Assembly (NCBI GenBank): GCA_016840855.1 | Contig: JAEORO010000068.1 | Coordinates: 1 to 19,861, forward strand | Length of the DNA stretch: 19,861 nt | Reading direction: 5' to 3' | Origin: Candidatus Thorarchaeota archaeon | GTDB lineage: Archaea > Asgardarchaeota > Thorarchaeia > Thorarchaeales > Thorarchaeaceae | Shown: in pieces, positions 1 through 18,946 of the stretch | Layout of the letters: each line of letters opens with the position of its first letter | Position numbering within the stretch: the stretch's first letter is position 1 | Position numbers and translations under genes: made by a program | Notes under the pieces: generated by a model | Told to the model about the DNA's origin: nothing | The model's database searches: none | What the model saw: only the letters and a program-made list of their open reading frames with translations

Positions 1-128
1 AGATTCAGAATCTGGTGTAACATACAGGAAGCAATGTATCATCACCTTTTATTAGTGATGCAATAATTGCGCCAGAAGCCCTCTTTTTATTGCCAATTTC
101 AATTGAAGTACTAGGAAACTGGTGAGCA

Positions 129-1607
129 ATGATTAGAACAAAAAAACGGACTGGTATTCTGCTTTGCATATTGCTCATAGTGTTAGTTTCAACATTGAAT
201 ACAAATGTAGCATCTTCAGCTTTTGAACAATACTGGCTTGAAGCGTCGCCTCGTTCAGTGACAACAATCAGTTCCACAATAAATTATACAGATTACCAAG
301 GTCAAGCGTGTAGTTCAGTTATTGTAACAGGAAATGCCACGAAAGATGGTCGTGCAATTCTAATGAAGAACAGGGACTGGATTGAAGAACTAATGAACAC
401 ACCTGTCTATGTTCCTGCAACTACCAATACCTATGCATATGTTGGAGTTAATACAAATACGATGGGGATTAATGAGAAAGGCTTAGCTGTAATGAACACA
501 TATTTACCAGCACTAGCAGGGTCGGAGCCAATATATGGAAATCTTCTATTAAACCAGAAAATCTTAGAGTTGTTCGAGTCAGTATCAGACGTGGCTTACG
601 CATTAAATAATAGTTACTCCATTATCGGTCCCGTATATCGAGCAAATCTTGGTAATGTGGCTACCTGTATCGGTGTAATAGACAGGTTCGGAGCAGGTGC
701 TTTCTTTGAAGTTAGCAACACAAAAGCGTACGTACAATACATCGTAGATGGGTATGATGCTCGTGCGAATCACCCGCGTATTTTCCCAGGAGCCGCAAGC
801 GGACCTAGCGGCAGAGATCAATACCTCTTGGATGCCCTTGATGAAGTATACAGCAAGACTGGCTACATCTCACCAGAGCACGTGATGCAGAATATATCAC
901 GATATGTGCATCACAAAGAGCTCGGCTCTGCAAACTTTTCAATTGATGGAGAAGCATGTAATCCAAACACAGTAGCTACAATGGTTGCTGTGAGTGGGGA
1001 TGAACGATATAATGGTATATTGAACTGCATGTGGACTGCATGCGGACCAAACCCTATTGTTGGAGTATTTGTTCCCTCAATGGTGTGCGCTGAATCCATA
1101 CCTGAGAGTATTGAAAATCTTTGGCGGCACACCTTAGACAAGTATCGTTCTGCTAGAGCACTATCCTCTGACTCAAGTGAATTGTTGTTCTATCCTAAAC
1201 GTGTAAGAGAAGTGCAGCGATTTTCATTCTTTACTGAAGTTTTTACTGTCAACGCGTATGAGCAGCTGATGTCCTCTGTGCCTGAAGGGCTCTCATATGT
1301 TCAAATTAAAGATACAGTCGGCGCCTTCATTGAAGATATGGATGATTTTACAATGGATACCTTCATTCAGGAAAGGATTGATGTTCAAACTCCGGATCAA
1401 ATATATTTTCCACTTCCACTTACATCAACCACAACTAATCCACCAACGTCAACAACTCCAAACAGCATTACTGATAATCAAACAAGCACAACTTCTCGAC
1501 TTTTTGACTCACCAACTGATAGCTATATTCTGTCATTGACGGTAGGGGTTGTTTCAGGTTTCATTCTAGTAATGCTAATTGTAATTATCAGACGTAGAAT
1601 CACCTAG
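129..1607 (+). CDS. Secreted, membrane-anchored Ntn-hydrolase (peptidase C45/C69-like, acyltransferase family)
   Basis: N-terminal signal peptide; nucleophile motif A-CSSVIVTGNATKDGRAILMKNRDW; GINEKGLAVMN motif; Thr/Ser/Pro-rich linker; C-terminal TM helix followed by RRR. Confidence 0.8.
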   Translation: MIRTKKRTGILLCILLIVLVSTLNTNVASSAFEQYWLEASPRSVTTISSTINYTDYQGQACSSVIVTGNATKDGRAILMKNRDWIEELMNTPVYVPATTNTYAYVGVNTNTMGINEKGLAVMNTYLPALAGSEPIYGNLLLNQKILELFESVSDVAYALNNSYSIIGPVYRANLGNVATCIGVIDRFGAGAFFEVSNTKAYVQYIVDGYDARANHPRIFPGAASGPSGRDQYLLDALDEVYSKTGYISPEHVMQNISRYVHHKELGSANFSIDGEACNPNTVATMVAVSGDERYNGILNCMWTACGPNPIVGVFVPSMVCAESIPESIENLWRHTLDKYRSARALSSDSSELLFYPKRVREVQRFSFFTEVFTVNAYEQLMSSVPEGLSYVQIKDTVGAFIEDMDDFTMDTFIQERIDVQTPDQIYFPLPLTSTTTNPPTSTTPNSITDNQTSTTSRLFDSPTDSYILSLTVGVVSGFILVMLIVIIRRRIT

Positions 1608-1645
1608 ATTGATTAAATTCTGCAATCTGTTCCCGACTAGTCCAC

Positions 1646-2086
1646 CTAGCTGGATTCAACATCGACTAGATTATCTAAAACTCTATGGAGATATTGCTCA
1701 AACTGGTCTATTTCTTCAGACACAAATCCCTTGTAGAATAGATTCGTCATTTCTACTGAAACTTCAATGTAGACTCTCTCAAGACTTCTAGAGGCTTCAG
1801 TCAACTGAATCAAGGTTTTCCTTTTGTCCTCCTCTGACTGAACACGTTTGATATATCCTGCAGCTTCAAGATTATCAAGCAACTCGCTCAAGGTTGATTT
1901 TCGAAGAAGTGTTCGTTTGGCAAGTAGATTGATCGGCACTCCATCCTTTTGCCATAGAGCAAATAGAACTCGACCTTGTCCAGGACCTATCTCGATATCC
2001 CGTTTTTTCAATATCTCTGCGAATACTCTTCTACCCAGATGATGAATCTGGGTGATTAGAAATCCTCCTTGGCTCTGAGACATCAC
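1646..2086 (-). CDS. MarR-family transcriptional regulator
   Basis: QGRVLFALW...LAKRTLLRKSTLSELLDNLEAAGYIKRVQSEEDKR is a MarR wHTH with the DxR wing; overlaps the upstream gene by 4 nt (operon). Confidence 0.92.
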   Translation of the reverse strand: MMSQSQGGFLITQIHHLGRRVFAEILKKRDIEIGPGQGRVLFALWQKDGVPINLLAKRTLLRKSTLSELLDNLEAAGYIKRVQSEEDKRKTLIQLTEASRSLERVYIEVSVEMTNLFYKGFVSEEIDQFEQYLHRVLDNLVDVESS

Positions 2087-2571
2087 TTTACATCACCCAA
2101 ATCCAACTTAAAGGTCATACTTCCTGTCCAACCTTTTGCAACCAATGGTGTGAATCTGAGAACTGTGTGATCAGGATCATCGTACCCAGTTGGGTAGTAT
2201 CTCTCCCATCCATCATGCCAGATTTCTTTCTTCAAGTCTAAATCTTCAACAATCTCAAATTCTCCGCCAAACATCACTCCCTGAGTAACTTCGGGCTTGC
2301 AGTAGTAGACGGAGGCTGCAGGTTTTGCTTGAATTTCTGCAACTTTCGTGGAAGAGGTATTAGTGGAAAACAGCATCATAAAGTCATCATGATGCTTGGT
2401 AAAAAGTGAAATTAACTTCGGATATCGCTCCTTGTTTCGAAGATTGAACATCGCTCTTGTCTGTGGAAATCCCTTTTCATCAACTGTTGATACATATGCT
2501 GGCCATCCGGTATCTAACAATTTCAGACACATCTCTCTGATCTCTTGTTCGTTCAATGTTGAGAACCCCAT
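2083..2571 (-). CDS. Pyridoxamine 5'-phosphate oxidase-like FMN-binding protein (general stress protein 26-like)
   Basis: STVDEKGFPQTRAM, FSTNTSSTKVAEI, IWHDGWERYYPTGYDDPD motifs. Confidence 0.85.
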   Translation of the reverse strand: MGFSTLNEQEIREMCLKLLDTGWPAYVSTVDEKGFPQTRAMFNLRNKERYPKLISLFTKHHDDFMMLFSTNTSSTKVAEIQAKPAASVYYCKPEVTQGVMFGGEFEIVEDLDLKKEIWHDGWERYYPTGYDDPDHTVLRFTPLVAKGWTGSMTFKLDLGDVK

Positions 2572-2609
2572 TAGTTCGGGACCTAATCAACTAGTTCGGT
2601 ACCTAACTA
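2572..2609. promoter_or_regulatory. Tandem palindromic operator, probable MarR binding sites
   Basis: TAGTTCGGGACCTAA (2572-2586) and TAGTTCGGTACCTAA (2592-2606) repeat with a 20-bp period; 2592-2609 is a 16/18 palindrome; abuts the start codon of the PNPOx-MarR operon. Confidence 0.7.
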
Positions 2610-2646
2610 ATTAACCTTTTGGTTCGAGCCATTAGAAATCTGCCGC

Positions 2647-2697
2647 CTTATATACAAAATCTGCTCCCGAATTTTTGACGCATCTTATATACAAAAT
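2647..2697 (+). promoter_or_regulatory. Duplicated TATA-box promoter element
   Basis: Exact 14-bp direct repeat CTTATATACAAAAT at 2647-2660 and 2684-2697; the second copy is positioned for a leaderless start at ATG 2714. Confidence 0.6.
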
Positions 2698-2713
2698 GAG
2701 CGAGATTTTATCC

Positions 2714-3052
2714 ATGACCGAATATAATTATGAAAAAACAAGAAAACTGGCAAGACAAGTTCTCGCTGAACTAAACCTTCCTGAACAAACATGCAAAAGA
2801 TGTCTGGCTCTTCTTGATGATAACAGAGCAAAGAATTTTCTGAACGCCCGAACTGTAACCGGGATCATTGGCGGGTCTGTCTACATTGCCGCCATTCTAA
2901 CCGAGAACCGACTTCCTCAGCACTCGATCGCTCAGGTTATGGAAATCTCCGAAGCAACTATCCGTAAGTACTACGTGATGTTAGTCAGAGCGCTTGATTT
3001 GAAACAAAATAGTAAAAAAAGGGGAGAGGAGGTAGCGGCTTACCTCCTCTAG
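2714..3052 (+). CDS. Stand-alone TFIIB/TFB C-terminal cyclin-repeat protein
   Basis: GIIGGSVYIAAIL...QHSIAQVMEISEATIRKYYVML resembles the second cyclin repeat/HTH of TFB; no Zn ribbon; ORF is open from 2675, and ATG 2714 is preferred by TATA spacing. Confidence 0.75.
   Translation: MTEYNYEKTRKLARQVLAELNLPEQTCKRCLALLDDNRAKNFLNARTVTGIIGGSVYIAAILTENRLPQHSIAQVMEISEATIRKYYVMLVRALDLKQNSKKRGEEVAAYLL
3014..3050 (-). terminator. Hairpin plus T-tract terminator for the 3065-4012 gene
   Basis: Perfect 10-bp stem AGAGGAGGTA (3025-3034)/TACCTCCTCT (3041-3050), followed on the minus strand by CCCC-T7. Confidence 0.65.
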
Positions 3053-3064
3053 TTGGTGTACTAC

Positions 3065-4012
3065 TTACCTTCTCTTGACGACTAAAACTACCAAGATTAT
3101 GATGACTGCAGCAGCAGCCACAATCCCGATAGTCATCGGATCAAGAACAAAGCCTGGTTCGGAGGGCAGAACTCCTAGTATGGGGTCATACTCAAGAGTC
3201 TCATTACCAAAGTTCTCAAAAGCAAGATAGATGGCATTTCCAGAGTAGCTTCCTGAAGCCTCACCGTAGCTGGCTCTAACCTGTAAGGTATTGTTGGCTG
3301 CAAGAGCTGTCTCATTGTATTGGAAATAACCGTTTTCAAACTGGAACATTGTTCCTGTTTTGTGAAATCCTGAGGGGTCAGTATCACCGTGAGTCTGTCC
3401 ATGAGAACTCTGAGTCACTGTGTACATGAGAACGAGGAGTGAATCTTCATAAGTCCAAGTCCAACCATCAACTCTAATATCAAATTTGAACTCACCTGGA
3501 TTCTCAAGGTACATGTGCACATTGACTTCAATCTCCACATCGAAGGATGGCAAACTAGGTAAGTGACCGTAGTCTACGCCTGTACCTTCTGGACGGGGAT
3601 CAAAGGTTGCATCTGTTGTGAAGTTGAAATGCACTTCAGTAGTGTTTCCATTATCTTCAACAGTTTCAAACCCACTGAAGTCCCAACCTGTTGTAGGAAG
3701 TACAAATGGAGCACCGATAATATCGTCTGTGCCATTCTCGAAGACACCGTCTGAGTTTGTATCGTTGGCTTCAAACATCCTTACAAACATGACATGATAG
3801 TCGACTGTTGGATTATTAGGATCCCACCAATGAAAGTGTGGTGCTTGATCATTTCCTGTGACTTTGATGGCAATGTCATCAGTTTCAAGTGATGCAATGC
3901 CAGCAGAATATTGGTATAGAATTCCCGTGCTCTGCGCGGCAACAAGCGGCACTCCTATCCCTATCAACATCAGGGCAAAGAGTGCAAGTGATGTTTTCTT
4001 GTAGATGTTCAC
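3065..4012 (-). CDS. Secreted beta-rich cell-surface protein with C-terminal TM anchor
   Basis: Signal peptide, acidic aromatic-rich beta-type body, several NxT/S sequons, YDP motif before the TM helix, KRR tail. Confidence 0.75.
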   Translation of the reverse strand: MNIYKKTSLALFALMLIGIGVPLVAAQSTGILYQYSAGIASLETDDIAIKVTGNDQAPHFHWWDPNNPTVDYHVMFVRMFEANDTNSDGVFENGTDDIIGAPFVLPTTGWDFSGFETVEDNGNTTEVHFNFTTDATFDPRPEGTGVDYGHLPSLPSFDVEIEVNVHMYLENPGEFKFDIRVDGWTWTYEDSLLVLMYTVTQSSHGQTHGDTDPSGFHKTGTMFQFENGYFQYNETALAANNTLQVRASYGEASGSYSGNAIYLAFENFGNETLEYDPILGVLPSEPGFVLDPMTIGIVAAAAVIIILVVLVVKRR

Positions 4013-4155
4013 TAAATCACCAAGATAATGCTTGCAGAACTATTATTAAAGGAGTGTTGAACAGTAAACCGATTATGACTTACTAAGAAGGGTTTTGCCA
4101 TCTAATTATCATGTTTAAAGGTTTATGAAAACTTAATATCCTTTGAAAGACTCAA

Positions 4156-6159
4156 TCAAGTTTTAAGCAATTCCTTTGCCTTTTCGAGTACATTCTCTAC
4201 AGTGAACCCATATGCCTCAAAAATCACCTTTGATGGTGCAGATTTTCCAAATTTTTCAACTGAGATTACGCTCCCATTATCTCCAATCCATTTACTCCAA
4301 CCCTGTGCAACTCCCGCTTCTATAGCGAGACGATTTTTCACACTGGGCTGAAGTACTGAATCACGATACTCTTGACTCTGGCTTTCAAACAACTCCCAGC
4401 TTGGGAAAGAAACAAGCCGTACATTGACTCCTTCAGCATGAAGTTTCTCTCCAGCTTCCACCATCAGTGGAACCTCAGATCCTGTAGCCATGAGAATGAT
4501 ATCTGGATTCTCTCCCAGATCTCCGAGAACATATGCACCTCTGTTCAAGCCAGCTGCTGGAGCATATCTACTTCGGTCTAGAATGGAAATATTTTGCCGA
4601 GTTAAGGCCAAGAGAGTTGGTCCTTGACTTCTCTCAATAGCAATCCTCCACGCCTCAACCACTTCATTTGCATCTCCTGGACGAATCACAACGAGTCCTG
4701 GAATCGCTCTCAATGATGCCAGGTGTTCTACTGGCTGATGAGTAGGTCCATCCTCTCCAACCCCAATACTGTCATGTGTAAAGACCCAGATGCTTCTATG
4801 TTTGGATAGTGCAGAAAGACGAATTGCTGGGCGCATATAATCAGAGAACATGAGAAATGTCCCACTAAACGGAATAATCCCACCATGTGCTGCCAATCCA
4901 TTTACTACAGCACCCATAGTATGCTCACGCACACCATAGTGAATATTACGTCCGTGCGGTGAATCTGCTTGGAATGAAGGGTTATCATTTATCCATGTCT
5001 TGTTCGATGGAGTCAAATCTGCTGAACCCCCAATCATCTCTGGCAGCTTTTGGGCTAGTGCATTAATGACTTTACCAGATGCACTTCTTGTTGCTATAGG
5101 ACCATCCTTAACTTCAAATTTTGGTAGGTTCTTATCCCACCCATCAACGAGCTGTCTTCTCATTCTTCTCTCCAATTCAGCAGCTAGTTTCGGGTATGCT
5201 TTACTATAATTCTCAAAATGTTTTATCCACTCACTTTCGTATTCTATACCGTTTTCGCCAATCTTACGATAATATTGTAAGACATCATCTGGCACATAGA
5301 ACATTGGTTCTAAGGGCCAACCAAGCTTCTTTTTCGCACCTGCAAGTTCTTCCTCGCCTGCAGGTTCCCCATGCGCTTTTTCTGTGTCCTGTTTATTTGG
5401 TAATCCAAACCCAATGTGCGTCTTGCAGAGTATCAATGAAGGACGCATGTCACTCTTGGCTCTCTGAATCGCTCTGTCAACTTCATCAACATCATTCCCA
5501 TCTTTTACATGTTGAATATGCCATCCAAGAGCTTCGAATCGTGCACCTCTATCTTCAGTAAAAGTCAAGTCTGTACTTCCATCAATTGAGATTCGATTGT
5601 CATCATAGAGAAGTATCAGTTTTCCCAAGCGAAGATGCCCTGCAAGAGATGCTGCTTCAGAAGAAAGCCCTTCCATCAAATCTCCATCAGTCACAATAGC
5701 ATAGGTATTGTGATCTATTATTTTGTGGTCTGGTTTATTGAAAACTGCTGCTAAGTGAGCTTCAGCAATTGCCATTCCCACTGAATTTGCTAGTCCTTGC
5801 CCAAGCGGTCCAGTAGTCACTTCAACTCCTGGTGTACAGAAATTCTCAGGATGTCCTGGAGTTTTGCATCCCAACTGCCTGAAGTCCATAATGTCTTCTA
5901 TACTGATATCGTAGCCAGTCAAGTAAAGTAATGAATAGAGCAGCATTGAACCATGTCCACCAGAAAGGATGAACCTATCACGGTCCCACCAGTCTGGGTT
6001 TTGAGGGTTAAAGCGAAGATGGCGAGTCCAAAGCGAATAAGTCATTGCAGCAGCGCCCATAGGCAATCCTGGATGTCCAGAATTTGCCCTTTGAACAGCG
6101 TCAGCCGACAAAAAACGGATTGTATTGATTGAGCGATCCTGAAGGGTTGATATAGGCAT
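4156..6159 (-). CDS. tkt: Transketolase (single-chain, bacterial type)
   Basis: [41 protein letters not shown] (ThDP motif), GEDGPTHQP; 667 aa. Confidence 0.98.
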
Positions 6160-6249
6160 TGGGGTGTCTCCTTACAAAATCTTGGAGATGATTAGGCCGC
6201 TTGACGTCTCCCCCTCTTTTTGATTGTTTTGTTTCAGATATTCAATAGC

Positions 6250-6819
6250 TCAAGATCTGCCAACTTCAGTGCCAGGAGGATATTCCATAAGAAATTCTTC
6301 CTTCAATATGTCCATAATAATGAAGTCTTGAAATACTCCTTTGACGAATGCTCCTTTCCTGTACACTCCTGCGCGTTTGAACCCAGCTTTCTCATATGCC
6401 TTCTGCGCACGTTCATTACTCCCAAGAGTATGGAGAAAGATACTGTTAAGACCAAGAATGTGAAAAGCTACCCAGAGCATTACCCGAGTTGCGTCTGTGC
6501 CATAGCCTTTTCCAAGGTTCTCAGGATTATGAATAGCAATACCAAACTCAGCCCGCTTGTGTTGTTTGGAGATGTCGAATATACTAACAGTACCTAGAAA
6601 CTTCCCTGTTTTCTTGTTCTCAATGGCAAGTATCATCTTACCATCTCTCCAAGGGTCTAAGGTAGTGGACTTTTCTAGCCACTGTCGTTCAGCCTGTCTT
6701 GACATGGGCGTCTGACTGTTCAGATATTGACGAATCTCTAAATTATTCCAGTGCCTCATGATATCATCAAGGTCTTCAACTTCAAGCGCCCTAAGGCAGA
6801 CCATCTCGCCATAATACAT
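6250..6819 (-). CDS. GNAT N-acetyltransferase (RimJ/RimL-like)
   Basis: RAEFGIAI...GKGYGTDA acetyl-CoA motif A; NERAQKAYEKAGF motif B. Confidence 0.9.
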   Translation of the reverse strand: MYYGEMVCLRALEVEDLDDIMRHWNNLEIRQYLNSQTPMSRQAERQWLEKSTTLDPWRDGKMILAIENKKTGKFLGTVSIFDISKQHKRAEFGIAIHNPENLGKGYGTDATRVMLWVAFHILGLNSIFLHTLGSNERAQKAYEKAGFKRAGVYRKGAFVKGVFQDFIIMDILKEEFLMEYPPGTEVGRS

Positions 6820-6909
6820 AAACTACGATTAACGGAACTCGAAAATAAATATGTCCCCGAAACAGCCCTGTTCGATAAACTCTTTACTTATTTTCCTGTG
6901 AGCTAGAAA

Positions 6910-7527
6910 ATGGAGACCTCGATAGTGAGCCCTCGAAAAGTATACTTTGAACATCCACTTATCAAAGTTGATTTTCAGAAGGTTCGCTTTCCAAAAACTT
7001 GTCCAGTCTGCGGTGCTCCAGCCACCAGAGTTTTACGTATGAAGATAACAAAAACTGGTAAACAATATCTAAGGCGATCATGGCAATATGCTTACAGTCC
7101 ATATATGAGATTCAAACAAAGACCAGACATTTCTGATGTAAAAGTCCTGACTATCCAAGTCTGTGATGACCATGCAAATCCGGATGATGGTACTGAAAGA
7201 TACCAAACTCTTTGCATTATTGTGGATGGTTTGCTTATAGCTTTCGTTATTTTCAGTCTACTAATTGTTGGAGATCGGCTCGCAAGAGCTCGTCCAATTG
7301 ACTTCTGGCCTGCACTATACATAGGTCTCTTTGGAGTAGCCATATTACTCACCGTAATGGCATTCAGACCAAATGCGATTGAAAAAGCTGTAACCATTAT
7401 CGGATTCGATCCTGGAATGCAAAATATCCTTCTTTCCTTCAAGCGCTCAGATTATCGAGAACAATTCATAGATGCAAATCAAATGACATCTGAGTTAGTC
7501 AGTTGGATTGTCCGGGCTGATGACTAG
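6910..7527 (+). CDS. Hypothetical membrane protein with putative Zn-binding motif
   Basis: FPKTCPVCG...VCDDH (CxxC/CxxH) followed by two TM helices. Confidence 0.7.
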   Translation: METSIVSPRKVYFEHPLIKVDFQKVRFPKTCPVCGAPATRVLRMKITKTGKQYLRRSWQYAYSPYMRFKQRPDISDVKVLTIQVCDDHANPDDGTERYQTLCIIVDGLLIAFVIFSLLIVGDRLARARPIDFWPALYIGLFGVAILLTVMAFRPNAIEKAVTIIGFDPGMQNILLSFKRSDYREQFIDANQMTSELVSWIVRADD

Positions 7528-7672
7528 GAATAATTTAATTACGAGAGAATCTGCTTGAATTTTACAATCTTGCCTCCATCATAGGCACATCATTTTGAGT
7601 GTGGAACCGATACTTTGAGGTTTCGTTGAGCGACTTGAAGAAATTCTCTGAGTTTGTCCTCAGTCACCCCTT

Positions 7673-7759
7673 CTATCTGTAGAGATATGAATGAATAAGA
7701 GCATCTGTTGAGATTCGTTTCCCATAGATCCTCTTGTTCTGTTTCTTTACAAATGCCAT
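7673..7759 (-). CDS. Micropeptide B, 28 aa (MAFVKKQNKRIYGKRISTDALIHSYLYR)
   Basis: Hand translation; ATG preceded by GGAGGT; paralogous to micropeptide A. Confidence 0.55.
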   Translation of the reverse strand: MAFVKKQNKRIYGKRISTDALIHSYLYR

Positions 7760-7766
7760 TTCGAGC

Positions 7767-7868
7767 TTACCTCCGATAGGTGTATACATGAGTCAGGGCA
7801 TCAGTGGAAACTGTTGCCTTGTTGTTCTTCAGCACAAATGTGTTCCGTGAGTTAGTTGTCAGAGCCAT
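7767..7868 (-). CDS. Micropeptide A, 33 aa (MALTTNSRNTFVLKNNKATVSTDALTHVYTYRR)
   Basis: Hand translation; TATATATA about 33 nt upstream; shares FVxKxNK and STDALxHxYxYR with micropeptide B. Confidence 0.55.
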   Translation of the reverse strand: MALTTNSRNTFVLKNNKATVSTDALTHVYTYRR

Positions 7869-7888
7869 GATGTTTCACAAGAATTAAC

Positions 7889-7908
7889 ACTCAAATTGAG
7901 TATATATA
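7889..7908 (-). promoter_or_regulatory. TATA box with adjacent palindrome upstream of the micropeptides
   Basis: TATATATA at 7901-7908; ACTCAA-A-TTGAGT inverted repeat at 7889-7901. Confidence 0.5.
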
Positions 7909-7978
7909 ACGAAGCCACCTCTTAGGGACACAGAATGAAGTCACAAGATGTGACCACTATGATGAGGGATGAATACGC

Positions 7979-8215
7979 GTGAATGAGCAGATGAAAGAAG
8001 TATCAGTCATAGGGATTGTTTCACAAATATTGGACCAATATGTCATTACAACTGACAATGGAACAGAATACAAATTATCAGCAATCATGCCTTGGGAGGC
8101 TGTTCCAGCTGATTTTGGGTTCGGGGATTTTACTATTCACCTAGGGAAGAGAATGACTGCAACTGGAATTACTGATGGAAACACAATTTGGAGAGCTAAG
8201 CTCTCTGAAAGCTAA
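7979..8215 (+). CDS. Small hypothetical protein, possible OB-fold-like beta barrel
   Basis: VIGIV...YVITTDNGTEYKL...LGKRMTATG pattern; plausible size and placement; GAGGG upstream of the start. Confidence 0.6.
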   Translation: MNEQMKEVSVIGIVSQILDQYVITTDNGTEYKLSAIMPWEAVPADFGFGDFTIHLGKRMTATGITDGNTIWRAKLSES

Positions 8216-8312
8216 GATAATATCAACTTACCCAAAATACTGTGTTTTGAAAAGAAATGGTTGATGGACACTACATATGTAGGTCCCTTTCAACCTGCAT
8301 CTTCTGAGTGTC

Positions 8313-8693
8313 TTAGAGTGAGAGCTCAGCTTCGCTCTTCCATAGACCATGAATGTTGCAGTTTGCTGTAGCCATCAAGGTGCCTGATTTGTCAGTTTTG
8401 AAGACAAACTTGGCAACGGGTTCGCTGTAGATTCCACTCGTATCAGCACCCTTAGCAGACTCACCATGGTGATCAAATGTCGCATAACCGATTTCGACCG
8501 GAAACTTCTCTCCTTCAGGCCAAAAGAAAAGGTCTATCCACTTAATGTGGTGAGCTGTTGTGTTTGGATGTGCAATCTCCTTGCCAACCGTTACTTTGAC
8601 GAACGCTTTTCCATCCTCAACCTTCATGATTTCAATAACAGGTACATGTTTCTCAGTTTTCCAATCATCACTCTGTATCCATTTCTTGGACAT
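8313..8693 (-). CDS. sor: Superoxide reductase (neelaredoxin/desulfoferrodoxin Fe-binding domain)
   Basis: EKHVP, HPNTTAHHIKWI and CNIHGLW supply the His4-Cys iron ligands. Confidence 0.92.
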   Translation of the reverse strand: MSKKWIQSDDWKTEKHVPVIEIMKVEDGKAFVKVTVGKEIAHPNTTAHHIKWIDLFFWPEGEKFPVEIGYATFDHHGESAKGADTSGIYSEPVAKFVFKTDKSGTLMATANCNIHGLWKSEAELSL

Positions 8694-8791
8694 TGTTCCC
8701 TACCTCTATTTAGAAACTGTGTCGTCTGATATTCAGATGACTCACTCTAAGCTCATATGTGAAGTCAGTTAAAATACTTCTCTTATGCCTG

Positions 8792-10282
8792 TTAAGCGAG
8801 TTTCGTAAGTTGTTTTGTTATCAATCGACCTCGCTCAGTTAATCCATAATAGGCTCTTTTTCTATTATCAAATGTGGTTTCAATTCTGGTCTGACTAACA
8901 AGACCTGTACTCCTAAGCTCTGAGAGATGTTGGTATACGCTAGGTATCTTTATTGAAATCCCAAAATCATCAACCAGAGTCTTCCAAATCCCGTATCCAT
9001 ATGACTCACTATCCACTAGAATTTGTAGAATTTGCCGCTTTGTCCTCCCTATCTGAGTCGTAAATTTTCTATCTTCTACTCTGCTAAGCAGATATTCAAG
9101 CTTTGACTGTCCCTTAATCAAAATGCGAGCAATTTCTGGATATTTCAAACCCATACCCGTTGCAACACAAACAATCGTGTCTGAAGGCTGAATCCTATCA
9201 GACCGCAACAACTGGCGCAAGGCTGCAATAGGCGTCGCAGATGCTGGCTCTACAAAAACTCCCTCCCGCCTAGCAATAGAGCTGACTGCATCTAAAGTAT
9301 CCTTGTCAGAAACTGAGATTGCAAACCCGTTTGACTCTCTTATAGCTCTTAGGGCTGTATGACCGCATGATGGATTCCCCATGCCTATATCAAGTGCAAT
9401 AGTGGCACCATCTGCAATTGGAATGATCGCATCTGATCCTTTCATGAAAGCATCAACAATCGGAGCACAGCTCGTTGATTGCACTCCCACCAATCTTGTT
9501 TCTATTTCATCAAGAACACCAATTTCCTGTAGTTCTCTCAATCCTTTCCAAATCATTGATAGATGTCCCCCATTTCCCATCGGAACAATCAACCAATCGG
9601 GTGCGTGCCAATTGAGCTGCTCACAAATTTCGAAGATGGTTGTCTTTACACCCTCTAGAAAAATTGAGCTATAGGCTTTGACAAAATAGCTCTGGCGACT
9701 TGCAATCTGTGCTCTCTCCATAGCCCTCTCGTGGTTCTTAACTACCTCAACATTCGCTCCATATGCTAGGATCTGGTAGAACTTTCCTGTATCAATATTC
9801 CCGGTTTGCGCTATGAATACGTTACTCTCCATTCCAGCCCTAGCAGCATAAGCAACAAGAGAAGCTGCAAGATTTCCAGTTGACCCACAGCACAATGATT
9901 GAAATCCCCTCTCCTTCGCGACTGTTACTTCTACAGCAGTGCCACGATCAATGAATGAACCTGTTGGGTTTGTTGTTTCATCTTTGATATACAATGTATT
10001 TAGTCCAAGGTGTCTAGAGAGTCTGTCGCATTTATGAAGATAAGTTCCACCCTCTCCAAGAGAGATTGCCTTTGATGGAACAGATACAGGTAGAAGTTCG
10101 GAGTACTTCCAGATACCTTGTTTTCTTGAAGAGATTGCTTTTCGATTGACCGTTTTCCCTACAGCAGCTAGGTCATATTTTATTTCAAGATAACTTCCGC
10201 AGTCTGAGCATACTCTTTCGCGAAGATCATCCTGATGCTCCTTTCCACATGTTGTACACTCAAATGATGATATGAATGACAT
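8792..10282 (-). CDS. Threonine-synthase-like fold-type II PLP domain lacking the catalytic Lys, fused to a C-terminal PadR-like wHTH
   Basis: N-terminal Zn ribbon, LGEGGT, NPTGSF-I-DRG (canonical SFKDRG), STGNLAAS, PMGNGG, TGMGLK; C-terminal YGYGIW...SVYQHLSEL...RAYYGLTERG. Confidence 0.85.
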   Translation of the reverse strand: MSFISSFECTTCGKEHQDDLRERVCSDCGSYLEIKYDLAAVGKTVNRKAISSRKQGIWKYSELLPVSVPSKAISLGEGGTYLHKCDRLSRHLGLNTLYIKDETTNPTGSFIDRGTAVEVTVAKERGFQSLCCGSTGNLAASLVAYAARAGMESNVFIAQTGNIDTGKFYQILAYGANVEVVKNHERAMERAQIASRQSYFVKAYSSIFLEGVKTTIFEICEQLNWHAPDWLIVPMGNGGHLSMIWKGLRELQEIGVLDEIETRLVGVQSTSCAPIVDAFMKGSDAIIPIADGATIALDIGMGNPSCGHTALRAIRESNGFAISVSDKDTLDAVSSIARREGVFVEPASATPIAALRQLLRSDRIQPSDTIVCVATGMGLKYPEIARILIKGQSKLEYLLSRVEDRKFTTQIGRTKRQILQILVDSESYGYGIWKTLVDDFGISIKIPSVYQHLSELRSTGLVSQTRIETTFDNRKRAYYGLTERGRLITKQLTKLA

Positions 10283-10292
10283 AAGCTATCAT

Positions 10293-10306
10293 GCCTATAT
10301 ATAGGC
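10293..10306. promoter_or_regulatory. Perfect palindrome overlapping the TATA element of a divergent promoter
   Basis: GCCTATATATAGGC in the 63-bp gap between the fusion gene and the ECF S-component gene. Confidence 0.55.
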
Positions 10307-10345
10307 TCAAAGTTATATATCCTATTCATTCTCGGCCATCCACGC

Positions 10346-10909
10346 GTGAATACCATGGAAATGGAGTATTTTCGACCTACACATCGGAGTTCAGCTGTTG
10401 ATATAGCGTTACTTGCTATTATGACCGCACTCTCAACAATTATGACTCTCGCAATTCAGATTCCTTATCCTGGGACAAGCGGCTATTTCAACTTTGGAGA
10501 TACAATGGTCATGCTAGGTGGACTACTACTAGGACCGATAGGTGGATTCATTGCGGGTGGATTTGGTTCCGCACTAGCAGATGTTATCAGCGGCTACACT
10601 TTCTACGCACCAATCACGCTCGTTGTCAAGGGGTTAGAAGGAATGGCAATAGGTTTCTTTAGCTTCAAAACCAAGAAAGTTAGCCGATTAAACAGATGGG
10701 ACATTGTTGGTGTTTTAGTCGCAGCCATTATAATGTTGATAGGGTATTTCTTGGCTCAGGTCATTCTCTTTGACATAGTAGTTGCAATCGGCGAACTCGT
10801 TACAGTCAACCTAGCACAGGTCACAATAGGTGGTGCTGTAGCGCTACTGATAGGCCCAACTATCAGAACATATCTTCGATCCCTAAGTTCAAATCAAATT
10901 GAGCCCTAA
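10346..10909 (+). CDS. ECF transporter S-component (vitamin uptake; HmpT/PdxU-like)
   Basis: GYFNFGD...LLGPIGGFIAGGFGSALADVISGY...APITLVVKGLEG; about 5-6 TM helices. Confidence 0.85.
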   Translation: MNTMEMEYFRPTHRSSAVDIALLAIMTALSTIMTLAIQIPYPGTSGYFNFGDTMVMLGGLLLGPIGGFIAGGFGSALADVISGYTFYAPITLVVKGLEGMAIGFFSFKTKKVSRLNRWDIVGVLVAAIIMLIGYFLAQVILFDIVVAIGELVTVNLAQVTIGGAVALLIGPTIRTYLRSLSSNQIEP

Positions 10910-11016
10910 GAAAACTCTTCGGAAGCGTGTATGACTAAGTAGAAGAACCTGTGGTGCGAAATCATTTTTTAGGATGACTCGTTATCCAAACGCGTGGTCA
11001 CTTAGACCATATTTAG

Positions 11017-12324
11017 TTGTTTAAACGAAAAGGGATGCCTCTGATGACTGACCGGCAGAAACTGAAAATCGATACCTCTCGTTTGAAAGAGATAAACGAG
11101 TTTCTTCTTCGTGAAGATAATCCACTTGTTAATGACCTTCTCAAGGTGATTGAGAGATACGGTGGCGTTGATGAGATAAACAAGCAAGCACGTGAAGCAA
11201 GGAAACTTGAGAATCTTATTGCTATGCTTGAAGCGAAAGACTCTGATTTCGTAAAAGATCTAAATTGGCTGCAAGATCAAAGAGATAATGAAGCTTTCAT
11301 ATCAATACCTGAATATCGTCACAAAGTGCTTGGTGACAAGGCTGACAGTACGAAATTTGATGATAGCTTTGCTGTTACTTTAGAAATTAGCGCGTGCCAA
11401 TATTTCCCATGGCTCATTGAAGAAGCGAAGCAGTCAATCAAGAAACAAGATCTCATGCCTGGTAGATTTATTCGTGTTCGAAATATGGCGGAGCAAACTG
11501 CCGACAATCAGGTCATCGCATTTGCTGCCGGAATGCAGATTGTTGGTGCATCATATGTTGAAACGCTCGACTCAAAGGGAACTTTTCCTGGTCCAGACGG
11601 CGCGCCTGTGAACGTTCACCTTGGTGGACCAGACACAATCACCGGGTATTTTGGAGGTGTAGGGATGCCTAATGATTTCCCACTTAGATGGGCTGATGAA
11701 TATCTGAAGTACTATACAAAGTACGGTGTGAAACAGGTACTCAACATCAACCCTGGAAGTATTTTAGTTGGTTATATGATGCACAAGCTCGGCATAGATA
11801 TGGAATTCAAGATATCTGTCTTTGTGGGAAATGACAATCCCTATGCATGTCTATGGACTTTGATGACGGCCAAACTTTTCAGTAGAGGTGATGGAACAAG
11901 TCCTCTTATTGGATTCAACCTTTCAAACAGTGTAGACAATCGAACACTAGAACTTGCAGCATATATTCGAAAGGACTTTGGATTCGAAGATGTTGTTAGA
12001 CTTGAACACCACATTACTGAAACCTACAAGAGTATTGTTCGACAACCATACGACCGTCTTCCAGAGCTTCTTGATATTGCAGATCATGTGAAAAACATCA
12101 GTGCAAAGCATGAAGGAGGAGTTCCTGAGCTTGATGCGCAACGCAAACATCCCAGCGACATTCTCGACTATTTCCGACGAAAGAGTGAGATTGAGGAACA
12201 GGGAGAGATGCCTCTCCTAACCCAAAACTATCTTGACAAACATCATGCATTGAATCGTACAGCTGAAGAACTGACCAGACGTGGTCTTACATTCATAGCT
12301 GCACAAAAGCTACATCGGAAATGA
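11017..12324 (+). CDS. Soluble hypothetical protein, enzyme-like
   Basis: 435-aa ORF with conserved-looking motifs (LEISACQYFPW, NVHLGGPDTITGYFGG, RLEHHITE, KHEGG); true start may be ATG 11035 or 11044. Confidence 0.7.
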   Translation: MFKRKGMPLMTDRQKLKIDTSRLKEINEFLLREDNPLVNDLLKVIERYGGVDEINKQAREARKLENLIAMLEAKDSDFVKDLNWLQDQRDNEAFISIPEYRHKVLGDKADSTKFDDSFAVTLEISACQYFPWLIEEAKQSIKKQDLMPGRFIRVRNMAEQTADNQVIAFAAGMQIVGASYVETLDSKGTFPGPDGAPVNVHLGGPDTITGYFGGVGMPNDFPLRWADEYLKYYTKYGVKQVLNINPGSILVGYMMHKLGIDMEFKISVFVGNDNPYACLWTLMTAKLFSRGDGTSPLIGFNLSNSVDNRTLELAAYIRKDFGFEDVVRLEHHITETYKSIVRQPYDRLPELLDIADHVKNISAKHEGGVPELDAQRKHPSDILDYFRRKSEIEEQGEMPLLTQNYLDKHHALNRTAEELTRRGLTFIAAQKLHRK

Positions 12325-12343
12325 TATCTACATAATCTTGAGA

Positions 12344-12362
12344 AGGGCTTTTGAAAAGCCCT
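12344..12362. terminator. Inverted repeat between convergent genes
   Basis: AGGGCTTTT-G-AAAAGCCCT. Confidence 0.5.
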
Positions 12363-12363
12363 C

Positions 12364-12834
12364 TCACATATCTGGTTGGAATATATCATCATACATGTCC
12401 TGTAGTCTAGTCTTGTGGACATCTTCTTCTTTTGCTAAGGTTTCAAAAACCGACCTATGATTTGCATTGCTTGTTACTTCAGAGAGCGCCTTGTAGAAGC
12501 TGTTTGCAGCACTCTCTCTCTTTATTGCTATGACCAAAATCTCTTGAGGTGACGAAGAAGGTCGAAGTGGAATATCGACGAGATATTGATCCAAATCCAA
12601 CTTCTCAACTTCTGCAACAGAACGACACGTGAAAGTTTCACATACTCCTTTTTTGAGTGCCTCCTGCAGCTTTTTCTTGTGGATGACCTCTTGATTCGCT
12701 AAATCTTTGAGTAGTTTTTCAGATGCTTTCAGCTCCGAGTTTTTCGCAGCCTTCACATAGAACTCATGTGCTTCCTCCTCCCTCTGAATGGCAAGGGAGA
12801 CTAGTTGCTCAAATGTCTGTTGTACTGTGGTCAA
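12364..12834 (-). CDS. Ferritin-like/rubrerythrin-family di-iron protein
   Basis: Duplicated AIxREE...FY...LAxxExxH helix pairs. Confidence 0.85.
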   Translation of the reverse strand: MTTVQQTFEQLVSLAIQREEEAHEFYVKAAKNSELKASEKLLKDLANQEVIHKKKLQEALKKGVCETFTCRSVAEVEKLDLDQYLVDIPLRPSSSPQEILVIAIKRESAANSFYKALSEVTSNANHRSVFETLAKEEDVHKTRLQDMYDDIFQPDM

Positions 12835-12894
12835 TGGTGTTCCCCATCCTTGGCATCAAGAATGTCCGTTTTAAGCTTGCTGTGCGCTAGAGTT

Positions 12895-14190
12895 TCATTT
12901 CTTCTGAGGTAGTATCTCCCTCATCTCAGATGGAAGGTACTTGTGTAGTGCTTTAGGAATTTCCACGCTGCCATCTTCTCTCTGATAATTTTCTATTATT
13001 GCGACCATTGTCCGCGGGTTTGCCATCATTGTGCTGTTCAATGTGTGAAGGAACCCTTTCTCAGTCCCTCCTTTCTTTAGGCGGTACTTGATATTGAGTC
13101 TAGTTGCTTGGTAGGCTGTGCAATTACTACAGGAACCACCCTCTCTGTATGTTTGTTGTCCAGGAAACCAGAACTCAAGGTCATATTTCTTTGCAGCTAC
13201 TATGCCAATGTCTCCTGTACAAACATTCACAACTCGGTATGGTAATTTCAATGCTTGAACAAAAGCCTCTTCGTTCTTGATAAGTTCCTCATGGATGTTC
13301 CACGAATCTTCAGGTAAGCTGAATACGAATTGTTCAATCTTGTTGAACTGATGCACTCTGAATATTCCCTTTGTGTCCTTTCCATGAGAACCAGCCTCCT
13401 TCCTGAAACAAGCACTCACACCAGCCATCTTGAGAGGAAGATCTATTGGTTCAAATATCTCACCCATGTACATTGCTGCCATTGGGTGTTCGGATGTGGC
13501 AATTAGGTAAAGGTCCTCTCCTTCAATCTTGTACATTACATTTTCAAAATCAGCAAGGTCTGTCACTCCTTCGTATGGTTCTCGTCTCATCATGAATGGA
13601 GGATAGACTGGAGTGAAGTCACGTTTAATTAGCATTTCAAGAGCCATTTGCTGCATTGCAATATCAAGCAAGACCAGTTCATTCTTCAAATAGTAAAACC
13701 TTGAACCTGCAAGTCTTGCAGCTCTAGGTATATCTCCTATATCTAAGGAGTCAAGTAGATCAACATGACTATGTGACTCGAACGTAAACTCTGGTTTTCC
13801 TCCCCATTCTTTCACAACCTCATTATCTTCTTCGTCTACGCCATAAGGTACACTCTCATGCAGTAGATTAGGGATACTCATCTGAATTCTTTTGAGCTGC
13901 AACTCACATTCAGTTGTTTCTTCTTCAACCGCACTGATTTTCTTATTTATAGCGTTCACCTTTTTGACAAGACTTGAATCATCCTTACCCGATTTCTTTA
14001 ATTCACCAATCTCTCTTGAGATCTTATTTCGCTGTGTTCTGAGGTCTTGTATATCCCTCTTCAATGTCCTTACTCTTTCATCAAGTTCTAGGAGATGGTC
14101 AAACTCTTTCAGTTTTTCATCATCTCGGCGACGTTTCAAGTTATCTCGAATAAGGTCAACATTGTCACGAATGAATCGGATGTCTAACAT
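12895..14190 (-). CDS. serS: Seryl-tRNA synthetase (standard type)
   Basis: MLDIRFIR start, N-terminal coiled coil, LIATSEHP, FRKEAGSHGKDTKGIFRVHQFNKIEQF, SCSNCT, HTLNST. Confidence 0.98.
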   Translation of the reverse strand: MLDIRFIRDNVDLIRDNLKRRRDDEKLKEFDHLLELDERVRTLKRDIQDLRTQRNKISREIGELKKSGKDDSSLVKKVNAINKKISAVEEETTECELQLKRIQMSIPNLLHESVPYGVDEEDNEVVKEWGGKPEFTFESHSHVDLLDSLDIGDIPRAARLAGSRFYYLKNELVLLDIAMQQMALEMLIKRDFTPVYPPFMMRREPYEGVTDLADFENVMYKIEGEDLYLIATSEHPMAAMYMGEIFEPIDLPLKMAGVSACFRKEAGSHGKDTKGIFRVHQFNKIEQFVFSLPEDSWNIHEELIKNEEAFVQALKLPYRVVNVCTGDIGIVAAKKYDLEFWFPGQQTYREGGSCSNCTAYQATRLNIKYRLKKGGTEKGFLHTLNSTMMANPRTMVAIIENYQREDGSVEIPKALHKYLPSEMREILPQKK

Positions 14191-14275
14191 TGGATGACTT
14201 CCCCATCAAAGTATAGTTGTCCTGAATGAATTCGGAGACTAGATAAGTTGTTTCCTTGGTCTAATTAAGATTCCA

Positions 14276-14929
14276 TCACTCACCAAATGCAGCAGATGGA
14301 CAAAGACTGTTGAGGGTGCAATTAATGCAATTTGGCTTTCGCGACTTACAAGTTAACCTTCCATGAGCACCTATTAATCGTGCATAGTCCCTCCACAATT
14401 CTTTTGGTAGAATCTCCATTAGGTCCTTCTCGATCTTCTCAGGTTTCATATCATGCTCGCTCAGACCTAATCGAATAGTTACACGCATGACATGGGTATC
14501 CACTACAATACCCTCGCTAATTCCAAAGACCACTGAGAGTACCACATTTGCTGTTTTTCTACTCACACCTGGAAATGAGATGAGTTCCTCCATTGTGTTT
14601 GGAACCTTACTATCGAATCTCTCGACCAGTAGATGAGAAGTTTCTATGATGTATCCAGCCTTTTTATTGAAAGCCCCAAGTGGTCGTATGATTTGACCAA
14701 TGGTGTTAAGATTGGCTTTAGCCAACTTCTCGGGAGTGGGATATTTTTTGAAAAGAGTTGGAGATGTCTTGTTTACGCCAGCATCTGTTGCACGCGCAGA
14801 TAGAATTGTTACAATTAACATTTCAAAAGGACTATGATAGTTCAGATATGTGACAGGAGCTTCGGGGTATGTTTTCTCTAAGATCTTGACAATTTGAACT
14901 GCAGTCTTACTTAGACTCATCATTTTCAC
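14276..14929 (-). CDS. nth: Endonuclease III (HhH-GPD, 4Fe-4S)
   Basis: PFEMLIVTILSA, FPGVSRKTANVVL HhH motif, VVDTHV, C-x6-C-x2-C-x5-C cluster motif. Confidence 0.95.
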   Translation of the reverse strand: MKMMSLSKTAVQIVKILEKTYPEAPVTYLNYHSPFEMLIVTILSARATDAGVNKTSPTLFKKYPTPEKLAKANLNTIGQIIRPLGAFNKKAGYIIETSHLLVERFDSKVPNTMEELISFPGVSRKTANVVLSVVFGISEGIVVDTHVMRVTIRLGLSEHDMKPEKIEKDLMEILPKELWRDYARLIGAHGRLTCKSRKPNCINCTLNSLCPSAAFGE

Positions 14930-14970
14930 CGTCTTCCATTTCAGGCATAATAACTCTTACAAGGAATACC

Positions 14971-16563: not shown

Positions 16564-16668
16564 CCGAAACTAGCTTCGGATACATCATGAACGGCGTAAG
16601 AACAAGTGGAAGTACTAGCTGAGGCTATATAGAGGCCTCACTTTTCATACATACTTTACTGACTGTAC

Positions 16669-16701
16669 TATTCCGGGGTCACTACTGTCACCCCGGTAAT
16701 A
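16669..16701. other. GC-rich hairpin downstream of the 83-aa gene (terminator or 3' stabiliser)
   Basis: CCGGGGT (16673-16679)/ACCCCGG (16690-16696), extended by TATT/AATA. Confidence 0.5.
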
Positions 16702-16730
16702 CGCCGGGTCCATTGCATTCACCGTGGCTA

Positions 16731-16982
16731 CTACTCGAACAATAGCACCTTAATGTCGCCGTCCGCTGTGGGGATGGCCATGATTTTTTGTGTGCCGATG
16801 TCCGCTGTAACCACGAGACTTTCTGGTGGAGCCTTTGCATTAATAAGATTCCTTACTGCTAACTCGAGGTTTATTGCAACGAGTCTTACAGTTTCTGAAT
16901 CTGTGAAGGGATCCACCTCACGTCCGTTCTCGGGCGTGGTGATATCTCCGAATAATGGTTCGATTCTATGTGTTCGTATCAT
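16731..16982 (-). CDS. Small hypothetical protein, 83 aa
   Basis: GGAGG upstream of the ATG; globular alpha/beta-like composition; downstream hairpin. Confidence 0.65.
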   Translation of the reverse strand: MIRTHRIEPLFGDITTPENGREVDPFTDSETVRLVAINLELAVRNLINAKAPPESLVVTADIGTQKIMAIPTADGDIKVLLFE

Positions 16983-17213
16983 TTTTCATTTTTCCTCCAT
17001 TGCGGGTATACCGCTTTTTTTCTTTATATTACCAGGGTTCAGGAACTTGATCGCCTACTCTTGGGTCCATTTTTTATTTCTCTCCTCGAATACTTCATTG
17101 TTCTCTTATCTATCTCAAAGGTCGGTATTGGATTCACTCCCGGACCAGTTTTTCTTGGGGGGCTGGTTTCGGGTTCCAATTCTCCTTCGTTGTAGATTCT
17201 CTTTGTTTGACTC

Positions 17214-17641: not shown

Positions 17642-17830
17642 ATCCAAGATAGAGAGTAGGAAACCGGTATAATAAGGGAGCGTCTGACAGAGAACCACTT
17701 CTAGTAAGCCTCTTAGCGCTATTTAGAGCCTTATTTGAGAAACGCCTTCAAAAAAACAACTGAAATTGAATGCAAATCGTGAAAAATTGGACTTGCGACA
17801 CATTCATTACTAAACAATTGGCCATAATAC

Positions 17831-18940: not shown

Positions 18941-18946
18941 AAGGAA

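Follow-up and report, generated by a model that had tools for sequence, protein, structure and literature searches.

A clade-restricted operon of basic and acidic micro-proteins in Thorarchaeota

Small open reading frame (sORF) operons of bacteria and archaea consist of unannotated genes of fewer than 50 codons, which are detectable only by comparative genomics. SpeFL and TnaC are short bacterial leader peptides that arrest the ribosome, and the ribosome exit tunnel can accommodate a complete chain of about 30 aa. The precursors of peptides that are made on the ribosome and modified after translation (RiPPs) usually combine a conserved leader with a variable core, and dispersed precursors can be served by one enzyme, as is the case for the prochlorosins. 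The HbYX signal is defined as a hydrophobic residue, a tyrosine and any residue at the extreme C-terminus (PMC11475706). Here, we describe a cassette of tandem micro-protein genes from a 19,861-nt stretch of Candidatus Thorarchaeota archaeon DNA (assembly GCA_016840855.1, contig JAEORO010000068.1, positions 1 to 19,861), which is referred to as the window. The cassette comprises two cistrons, A and B, encoding basic paralogues, and, in most of the loci examined, a third cistron, C, encoding an acidic peptide.

The cassette resembles the sORF operons in its unannotated, very short genes, and differs from them in general by its three micro-cistrons in a coupled layout (two basic paralogues and one acidic), by its occurrence at fixed chromosomal places with 1-13 profile matches in each genome, and by a clade-specific operator. 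Like SpeFL and TnaC, the A and B peptides are about 30 aa long and basic, their conserved aromatic C-terminus runs up to a favoured stop codon, and another start lies a few bases beyond; unlike them, they are archaeal and multi-copy, are kept where nothing follows, and have no regulated enzyme gene downstream. Like the precursors of triceptides and other radical S-adenosylmethionine (SAM) RiPPs, they are precursor-sized, have many paralogues and carry aromatic/His triads (HAY, YxY, YRR) near the C-terminus. They differ from the triceptide type in that the neighbours scanned at 17 loci included no maturase, RiPP recognition element (RRE) protein, protease or exporter, in that the cassettes are stand-alone transcription units, and in that conservation is reversed relative to the usual leader and core. 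Finally, the window's B and four other B copies share the hydrophobic-Tyr-X C-terminus of the HbYX regulators (PAN, Cdc48/VAT and the small HbYX proteins); unlike the tail of these regulators, it is not family-wide, the conserved element being the upstream predicted STDA(I/L)xHAY helix, and the likeness is one of sequence alone.

The two cistrons were originally proposed by a sequence-only reading as two minus-strand open reading frames (ORFs) 7 nt apart. Their coordinates were read directly and agree with this (Table 1), the gap between the stop of A and the ATG of B being gctcgaa. The frame of cistron B appears in the program-made ORF list as an entry started at an ATG further upstream (7673..7789). 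Both C-termini read S-T-D-A-L-x-H-x-Y-x-Y-R, and the synonymous codons used for this motif differ between A and B as had been claimed. In a six-frame translation of the whole 3.36 Mb genome the strict motif has exactly two matches, which are A and B. When 241,610 neighbouring same-strand ORF pairs of the genome were compared, seven pairs, A/B included, shared at least 9 of 13 C-terminal residues; four of the other six lie in one run of 63-nt period on contig C239 and two on contigs C112 and C222, the DNA of all six being left uninspected. The tandem A/B observation is far beyond chance. Taking together the real coding family, the operon layout, the clade restriction and the conserved promoter described below, we hold this description of the cassette with high confidence.

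The profile search identified 11 copies in the window's own genome, distributed over five loci on contigs C10, C86, C107, C256 (the window) and C257 and always arranged as tandem pairs or triples. A hidden Markov model (HMM) built from nine of these copies was searched against the 105,737 small ORFs of the genome and returned 10 ORFs with E ≤ 0.0021, all in the five loci, while the next match had an E value of 0.66. The 11-copy profile matched 24/24 genomes of the same genus, 69 of the 85 genomes of the taxonomic family and 0/16 genomes of other families. A broader profile of 36 rows extended the family to 78/85 genomes and 16/16 genera, with 1-13 matches each, and found none in the phylum outside this family (314 genomes). 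All listed matches were open frames of 29-77 codons with no internal stop. A homologue search had been suggested along with the sequence-only reading, and in the 78 family genomes both the frame and the motif were kept. The A-B-C cassette is an innovation of one Thorarchaeota family. No large protein of the own genome was found to carry the A/B-tail or the C-tail motif at an end. Only 20 proteins from a library of 1.84 billion representatives reached E ≤ 0.001, of which 18 were the same micro-ORFs and two were unrelated repeat proteins; it follows that these genes are almost always overlooked by gene callers. The C257 locus also has, between its first and second family members, a 45-codon frame (L004:9561-9695, minus strand) with ISTD... 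and ...EIAYLVTNL pieces, which may be a broken extra copy.

An analysis of codon variation was performed on 47 copies from 24 loci, with L005 dropped as it repeats L002. The entropy summed over 30 aligned codon columns was 31.5, 27.7 and 45.2 bits at positions 1, 2 and 3, respectively, and the invariant motif columns varied almost only at the third position (T20, 0.25/0.25/1.55; A22, 0.25/0/1.62). Within orthologue groups, the Nei-Gojobori ratio of nonsynonymous to synonymous divergence (dN/dS) ranged from 0.23 to 0.39 in A, from 0.11 to 0.28 in B and from 0.40 to 0.62 in C. Selection at the protein level, which had been suggested from the motif codons of the single A/B pair, is thus borne out by the dominance of third-position variation in the motif columns and by dN/dS values below 0.4 for A and B. 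A maximum-likelihood tree was calculated for 21 first and 20 second cistrons over only 34 columns, which makes its finer detail unreliable. One branch parted A from B (support 94/90), a single change sufficed in 96% of the bootstrap trees, and none of 500 label shuffles matched the split. As A and B are divided by one branch, their duplication came before the cassette spread to several loci. Both are ancient paralogues on which purifying selection acts at the protein level.

The same data bear on the view that the conservation reflects an RNA or DNA element within which the ORFs are incidental. The mRNA region folds somewhat better than shuffled sequence (z -2.7), and the synonymous divergence of A is relatively low, both of which would fit a non-coding element. 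We give this view almost no credence, as the motif columns vary mostly at the third codon position, dN/dS is well below 1, every listed match from about 80 genomes keeps an open frame, and there is no Rfam match.

The peptides of the cassette fall into two basic groups and an acidic one. A has 32-35 aa with a mean net charge of +4.8 and a mean pI of 10.3, B has 27-32 aa with corresponding values of +5.8 and 10.6, and C has 35-38 aa (about 37) with values of -2.7 and 5.2. A and B start with a Lys/Asn-rich half, followed by S-T-D-A-(I/L)-x-(H/Y)-A-Y-x-Y and an Arg tail, the family consensus being [ST]T[DEQ]A[IL]x[HY]AYx[YF]. Their C-terminal 12-13 residues and the N-terminal MAL(A/T)(K/T) are conserved, and the middle is variable. 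The window's own pair had been described as basic and non-membrane, and the A and B peptides of the family have a net charge of about +5 and are hydrophilic with no hydrophobic stretch; the hydrophobic transmembrane stretch of type I or small membrane toxins is absent from A and B. Cistron C follows B in 16 of the 24 loci examined. Its N-terminal part is variable, polar and Ser/Thr-rich, and its C-terminus, E-V-L-x-x-E-A-T, is invariant, with EAT as the last tripeptide in 16/16. The S-T-D-A and S/T-x-x-E stretches resemble helix N-caps. A profile of C matched 27/27 genomes of the genus and 62/85 genomes of the family with 1-4 matches each, including two intact C ORFs in the own genome (one on C10, one on C86).

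In the window, A and B are kept and an intact C is absent. The site of C is occupied by a frame that is preceded by a TGA and has no start codon in translation (Table 1). By DNA alignment only, this site aligns with the C of the orthologous loci L009 and L019. Because BLASTP gave no alignment between the startless frame and the C peptide of L009, it is by position that the frame may be called a decayed C.

The opposite charges of the peptides raise the question of a toxin/antidote trio, in which harmful basic A and B peptides, active on nucleic acids or membranes, would be neutralised by acidic C. The coupled layout of three cistrons on one predicted transcript would suit such a trio, as would the presence of at least one C in each of the 27 genus genomes searched. 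We nevertheless consider it very unlikely: A and B persist at the 8 of 24 loci from which C is absent, they are hydrophilic with no membrane helix and no PADLOC match, and the cassettes are positionally stable and vertically inherited rather than mobile.

The arrangement of the cistrons suggests how they may be translated. Among 1,913 ORFs of at least 200 codons in the genome, TAA, TAG and TGA account for 30%, 33% and 37% of the stops. The first listed cistron ends in TAA in 17/24 loci, usually as TAY-CGG-AGG-TAA, and the second ends in TAG in 17/22; binomial P values for this bias overstate it because the loci are related. The start of B lies 6-7 nt past the stop of A. In 14 of the 16 loci with C, the start of C (ATG in 12, TTG in 2) lies exactly 6 nt past the TAG of B and in frame with it. 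The exceptions are L018, where TGA is followed by 5 nt and C is out of frame, and L011, where C is further away. The GGAGGT claimed to precede the second ORF was located as described, overlapping the last codons and the stop of A, and CGGAGG plus the stop was found at the first junction in most loci. Of 1,867 long ORFs, 25% have a pentamer resembling the Shine-Dalgarno (SD) sequence in the -18..-3 region, as compared to 5% for a control region, and the enrichment of such pentamers before the long ORFs of the genome is 5- to 9-fold, which indicates that the organism uses SD-type initiation. The 16S rRNA is absent from the assembly, and the use of SD sites is accordingly shown indirectly, through this enrichment. 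It is plausible that GGAGGT and AGGT within the last codons of the preceding cistron serve as ribosome-binding sites. From this layout, we infer that A, B and C would be translationally coupled, and the conservation of the terminal Arg residues would in part be a constraint at the nucleotide level.

A junction of this kind would also suit peptides acting in cis, whereby nascent A and B would arrest in the ribosome tunnel at their stops and set the translation of the next cistron, ultimately C. A whole peptide of this length would fit the exit tunnel, the 13 conserved C-terminal residues are coupled with a preferred stop codon, and the next start is just 6-7 nt downstream, which would put it under the terminating ribosome. 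Such a role appears quite improbable. No enzyme or transporter gene follows the cassettes; T-runs were present past C in the loci read, and only micro-cistrons follow A. The N-terminal MAL(A/T)(K/T) is conserved as well as the C-terminus. Moreover, A and B are under purifying selection in loci without C, the window included, which argues for a role beyond the control of C.

The stop of B deserves separate attention. Three library proteins of 69-72 aa (P0004, P0006 and P0018) are B-C fusions with Q exactly at the position of B's TAG, and two relatives carry TAG at the junction; the Q is probably due to an alternative code (TAG=Q) applied by the gene caller. The junction, a conserved in-frame TAG-NNN-NNN-start, is one at which a fraction of ribosomes may read through into a B-C fusion. 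A pyrrolysine reading of the TAG is unsupported: in a genome that is 92% complete, PylS was not found, PylD was not found above the cut-off, and tRNA-CUA was absent among the 24 tRNAs found. In the same ARAGORN scan, which listed 24 tRNAs in total and used no intron-aware mode, a tRNA-Sec with anticodon TCA was observed at positions 35074-35164 of one of the contigs.

The features of the window locus are collected in Table 1.

Table 1. Coordinates of the cassette and its upstream elements in the window.
Feature	Positions	Strand	Description	Support
Cistron A	7767..7868	(-)	33-aa basic micro-protein, ATG 7868 to TAA	Profile E 1.4e-14; orthologue-group dN/dS 0.39; placed with the A group in the tree
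Cistron B	7673..7759	(-)	28-aa basic micro-protein, ATG 7759 to TAG, C-terminus LYR	Profile E 1.3e-10; orthologue-group dN/dS 0.16; B group in the tree, long branch (0.63)
GGAGGT, SD-like site for B	7769..7774	(-)	Made of the last Arg codons of A and the first stop base	
Site of cistron C in orthologous loci	7562..7663	(-)	In the window only a startless frame ending DVPMMEARL	
TTCTTGTGAA box	7874..7883	(-)	Between TATA box and start codon, near the expected transcript start	Conserved
Core promoter	7901..7920	(-)	GTGGCTTCG block (BRE position), then TATA box TATATATA at 7908-7901	Columns nearly invariant across 16 loci
Second TGTG box	7925..7933	(-)	CTGTGTCCC in the window; consensus CTGTGACCC	
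Operator-like palindrome, 15 nt	7940..7954	(-)	GTCACA-N3-TGTGAC, GTCACATCTTGTGAC; upstream of the promoter	

The TATA box and adjacent palindrome reported from the window sequence were both recovered, the palindrome lying just beyond the end coordinate given by the sequence-only reading. The labels of the putative TATA box and transcription factor B recognition element (BRE) follow the general layout of archaeal promoters. These elements were compared across 16 loci from the window's genus, the window included, which are termed type-1 loci. The 100 nt preceding the ATG of A show a mean identity of 77% across them with near-invariant blocks, about 90 nt of promoter being conserved with the palindrome, the TGTG boxes and the TATA box, and most palindrome columns are conserved at 90% or more. 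The type-1 consensus runs TAGTCACA-N3-TGTGACTTC, CTGTGACCCT, AAGTGGCTTCGC-TATATATAC and TTCTTGTGAA, with the ATG about 7 nt on. Judged by its distance from the TATA box, the transcript would start near the TTCTTGTGAA box, and by general archaeal promoter geometry the distance from TATA box to ATG would leave a leader of roughly 10 nt.

The palindrome GTCACA-N3-TGTGAC occurs at five sites in the genome, three of them before cassettes. The remaining two precede a 385-aa membrane protein with no Pfam match and a 439-aa bactofilin-domain protein. A fused module, GTCACA-N3-TGTGACCC-N3-7-TGTGGC, was found at 11 sites in the genus genomes and at 0 with a reversed control; seven of the sites lie before bactofilin-domain orthologues, three before membrane-protein orthologues and one before another gene. 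Cistron C, the multi-locus distribution across the clade, the translational-coupling layout and the recognition that the palindrome is part of a conserved operator module all go beyond the sequence-only reading. A 108-aa winged-helix HTH_45 protein is encoded upstream of the operator-bearing bactofilin-domain gene on the same strand (L031:4677-5003, minus strand) and is a candidate regulator. The third cassette type has a different conserved upstream palindrome, TGTAATA-N-TATTACA, and its first cistron (L003:9260-9364, minus strand, and L007:1372-1476, plus strand) is a divergent family member that ends in LDSLYYDYARIK with TGA as its stop.

The genomic surroundings of the cassettes were then compared between genera. 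The window-type locus consists of a GNAT (Acetyltransf_3) gene, a gene for a protein of about 200 aa without Pfam match, the cassette, and a divergent ORF of about 80-97 aa, and it recurs in L052 and L056, which belong to two other genera. A second locus type lies beside PolX, URO-D and HDAC genes and a third beside genes for an MFS transporter and a 3-hydroxyacyl-CoA dehydrogenase (3HCDH); both keep their neighbours across genera. As each locus type keeps its neighbours across genera, the cassettes are old, vertically inherited paralogues. No conserved neighbour gene was found across the different locus types. A mobile-element reading was ruled out, the orthologous cassettes holding the same neighbours across genera.

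The neighbourhoods also bear on an explanation of the peptides as RiPP precursors. Under that explanation A and B, and perhaps C, would be precursors whose Tyr/His-rich C-terminus is modified, by cross-linking or in another way, by an enzyme encoded elsewhere in the genome, as the prochlorosin arrangement allows. The peptide size (28-38 aa), the many dispersed paralogues and the conserved aromatic/His-rich C-termini are fitting, and the genome encodes two radical SAM/SPASM enzymes. However, neither SPASM gene adjoins a cassette, the nearer one lying about 58 kb away on C257, and maturase, protease and transporter were absent both among 36 larger ORFs around the five own loci and among 28 flanking ORFs at 12 loci of other genera. 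Conservation of both ends of A and B with a variable middle is the reverse of the leader and core pattern, and the basic Arg tail doubles as an SD site. We therefore regard the RiPP explanation as decidedly unlikely. The sequence-only reading had listed regulatory peptides, nucleic-acid-binding peptides and RiPP-like precursors as its options. Its remark that no modifying enzyme is adjacent holds by Pfam for the nine larger window ORFs between 3065 and 12324, among which no peptide maturase was identified, and its RiPP option is weakened by the conserved C-terminus, the variable middle and the lack of a maturase among the neighbours scanned.

The suggestion that the peptides form an undescribed family was supported by searches of curated resources, in which Pfam, NCBIfam, PADLOC and the PDB gave no usable match. 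For A and B, the only Pfam family to appear was PF11629, at a sub-threshold E value of 0.037 for 1 of 11 members; NCBIfam gave 0 matches, PADLOC 0/36, PDB sequences 0 and the ESM Atlas no usable match. For C, Pfam returned only matches with E ≥ 0.12, each for 1 of 16 members. A full-text search of the literature on small proteins of Asgard archaea and Thorarchaeota, on HbYX small proteins and on triceptides, with supplements outside its scope, found no description of the family. The genes are not in any curated family or solved structure searched.

The PIP box, by which proteins bind PCNA, follows the pattern Qxx[LIM]xx[FY][FY]. Both this box and the HbYX tail allow for the peptides to be binders of known hubs, with B as an HbYX-tail mimic docking onto the 20S alpha ring or A and B binding PCNA through a PIP-like box. 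Consistent with this, the window's B ends in LYR while the genome's PAN and two Cdc48 homologues end in MYC, GYV and MYG, all with a penultimate Tyr, and one cassette type is syntenic with DNA polymerase X. Against it, only 5 of 20 B copies end in [LMI]-Y-X and three more in T-Y-R, and a penultimate Tyr occurs in 0/21 A copies. The PIP fit is also poor, with Asp/Glu usually in place of Gln, an aliphatic residue at position 3 and aromatics at positions 7 and 9. Docking onto either hub is, in our view, highly improbable.

Our preferred reading is that A, B and C are trans-acting binding micro-proteins that act through their C-terminal helices, and that type-1 cassettes are co-regulated with the bactofilin-domain and membrane-protein genes; taken as a whole, we consider this statement about evenly balanced between right and wrong. 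The TATA promoter would give an mRNA with a short leader, on which A would be translated first. B, and then C where present, would start from the SD-like sequences formed by the terminal Arg codons and stop of the previous cistron (CGG AGG TAA; AGG TAG), and through this coupling the three peptides would be made together. The capped C-terminal helices of the free peptides may dock onto a conserved partner in the cell, which could be a protein or a nucleic acid, and basic A and B may also bind acidic C. Type-1 cassettes appear to be switched by a regulator that would recognise GTCACA-N3-TGTGAC. An AlphaFold2 model of a 70-aa B-C fusion from the library was helical from STDA through the last residue of B and again across EDVLMWEAT, with pLDDT values of 70-76 in these blocks. 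A complex prediction from A/B alignments with C as the partner scored 0.02 against a mark of 0.32, which is no evidence either way.

Several observations weigh against the preferred reading. The binding module is a best guess argued by exclusion and from peptide anatomy only, and the B-C fusion model has a mean pLDDT of only 61 and a pTM of 0.24 from 3 alignment rows. C is missing or has no intact frame in 8 of the 24 loci, the window among them; its absence excludes an obligatory A/B-C complex formed at the same locus, and C would have to act in trans. As the SD-like site constrains the terminal Arg codons in the DNA, the conserved motif may in part be something other than a feature of the protein. 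The synonymous divergence (dS) of A, 0.39-0.75, is below that of B, 0.62-1.96, which points to an additional nucleotide-level constraint or to gene conversion in A. Only 8 of the 28 genus genomes yielded the exact operator module. Among the cassettes, it lies before those of type 1 alone, and the upstream regions of type-2 and type-3 cassettes differ from it and are conserved too. Counts across genomes overstate the support because related genomes are not independent. Lastly, a search of sequencing runs found the stretch in 20 DNA holders from 8 studies and in 0 RNA holders.

A more ambitious proposal is that of a Thorarchaeota-specific three-part system, in which the two basic paralogues and their acidic partner would assemble through their C-terminal helices into a switchable regulator of a conserved cellular machine, under an operator held in common with the bactofilin-like and membrane-protein genes. 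We consider this proposal rather unlikely. If true, the cell envelope or the cytoskeleton of an Asgard archaeon would be under the control of a lineage-specific layer of small proteins, and should the peptides regulate a conserved machine, they would represent lineage-specific control of a new kind. Research on Asgard archaea centres on their position as the closest prokaryotic relatives of eukaryotes, and genes of about 30 codons are absent from the annotated gene sets of these archaea. Here, a strongly conserved micro-protein operon in multiple copies marks one whole family of Thorarchaeota, and its operator is common to a cytoskeletal (bactofilin-domain) gene. The analysis provides a set of unannotated genes that is concrete and can be tested, along with a candidate regulon and a defined candidate binding motif. 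Regardless of their function, the genes belong in annotations, and they show the extent of the invisible small-gene content of these genomes.

The wider content of the window was also surveyed. The Pfam scan of its nine larger ORFs identified transketolase, GNAT, superoxide reductase, a PALP-PadR fusion and an ECF S-component, and the window had no Rfam match and no tRNA in a tRNA scan. The gene after the cassette is convergent with it (6910-7527, plus strand) and encodes a 205-aa protein with a CxxC pair, hydrophobic stretches and no Pfam match. An ORF of about 200 aa without Pfam match is located at the same place in L052 and L056, its homology to the 205-aa protein being unchecked. On the other side, a 78-aa ORF without Pfam match (7979-8215, plus strand) diverges from the cassette across a common promoter region, and 54-59% identity was observed at the same place in the two other genera (L052 and L056). 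A 496-aa protein (8792-10282, minus strand) has a Cys-rich N-terminus and joins a threonine-synthase-like, pyridoxal phosphate-dependent PALP domain to a C-terminal PadR winged helix, forming an enzyme-regulator fusion.

Further observations were made at the other loci of the genome. A superoxide reductase gene with a desulfoferrodoxin domain lies near the window cassette (8313-8693, minus strand) and an AhpC/TSA peroxiredoxin gene near the C107 cassette (L003:9534-10034, plus strand). Oxidative-stress genes are thus found near two of the five own loci, which may be a coincidence. One own locus is near a profilin gene. The run of 63-nt period on G000 contig C239 extends over about 48622-48955 and gives near-identical 21-aa ORF tails.

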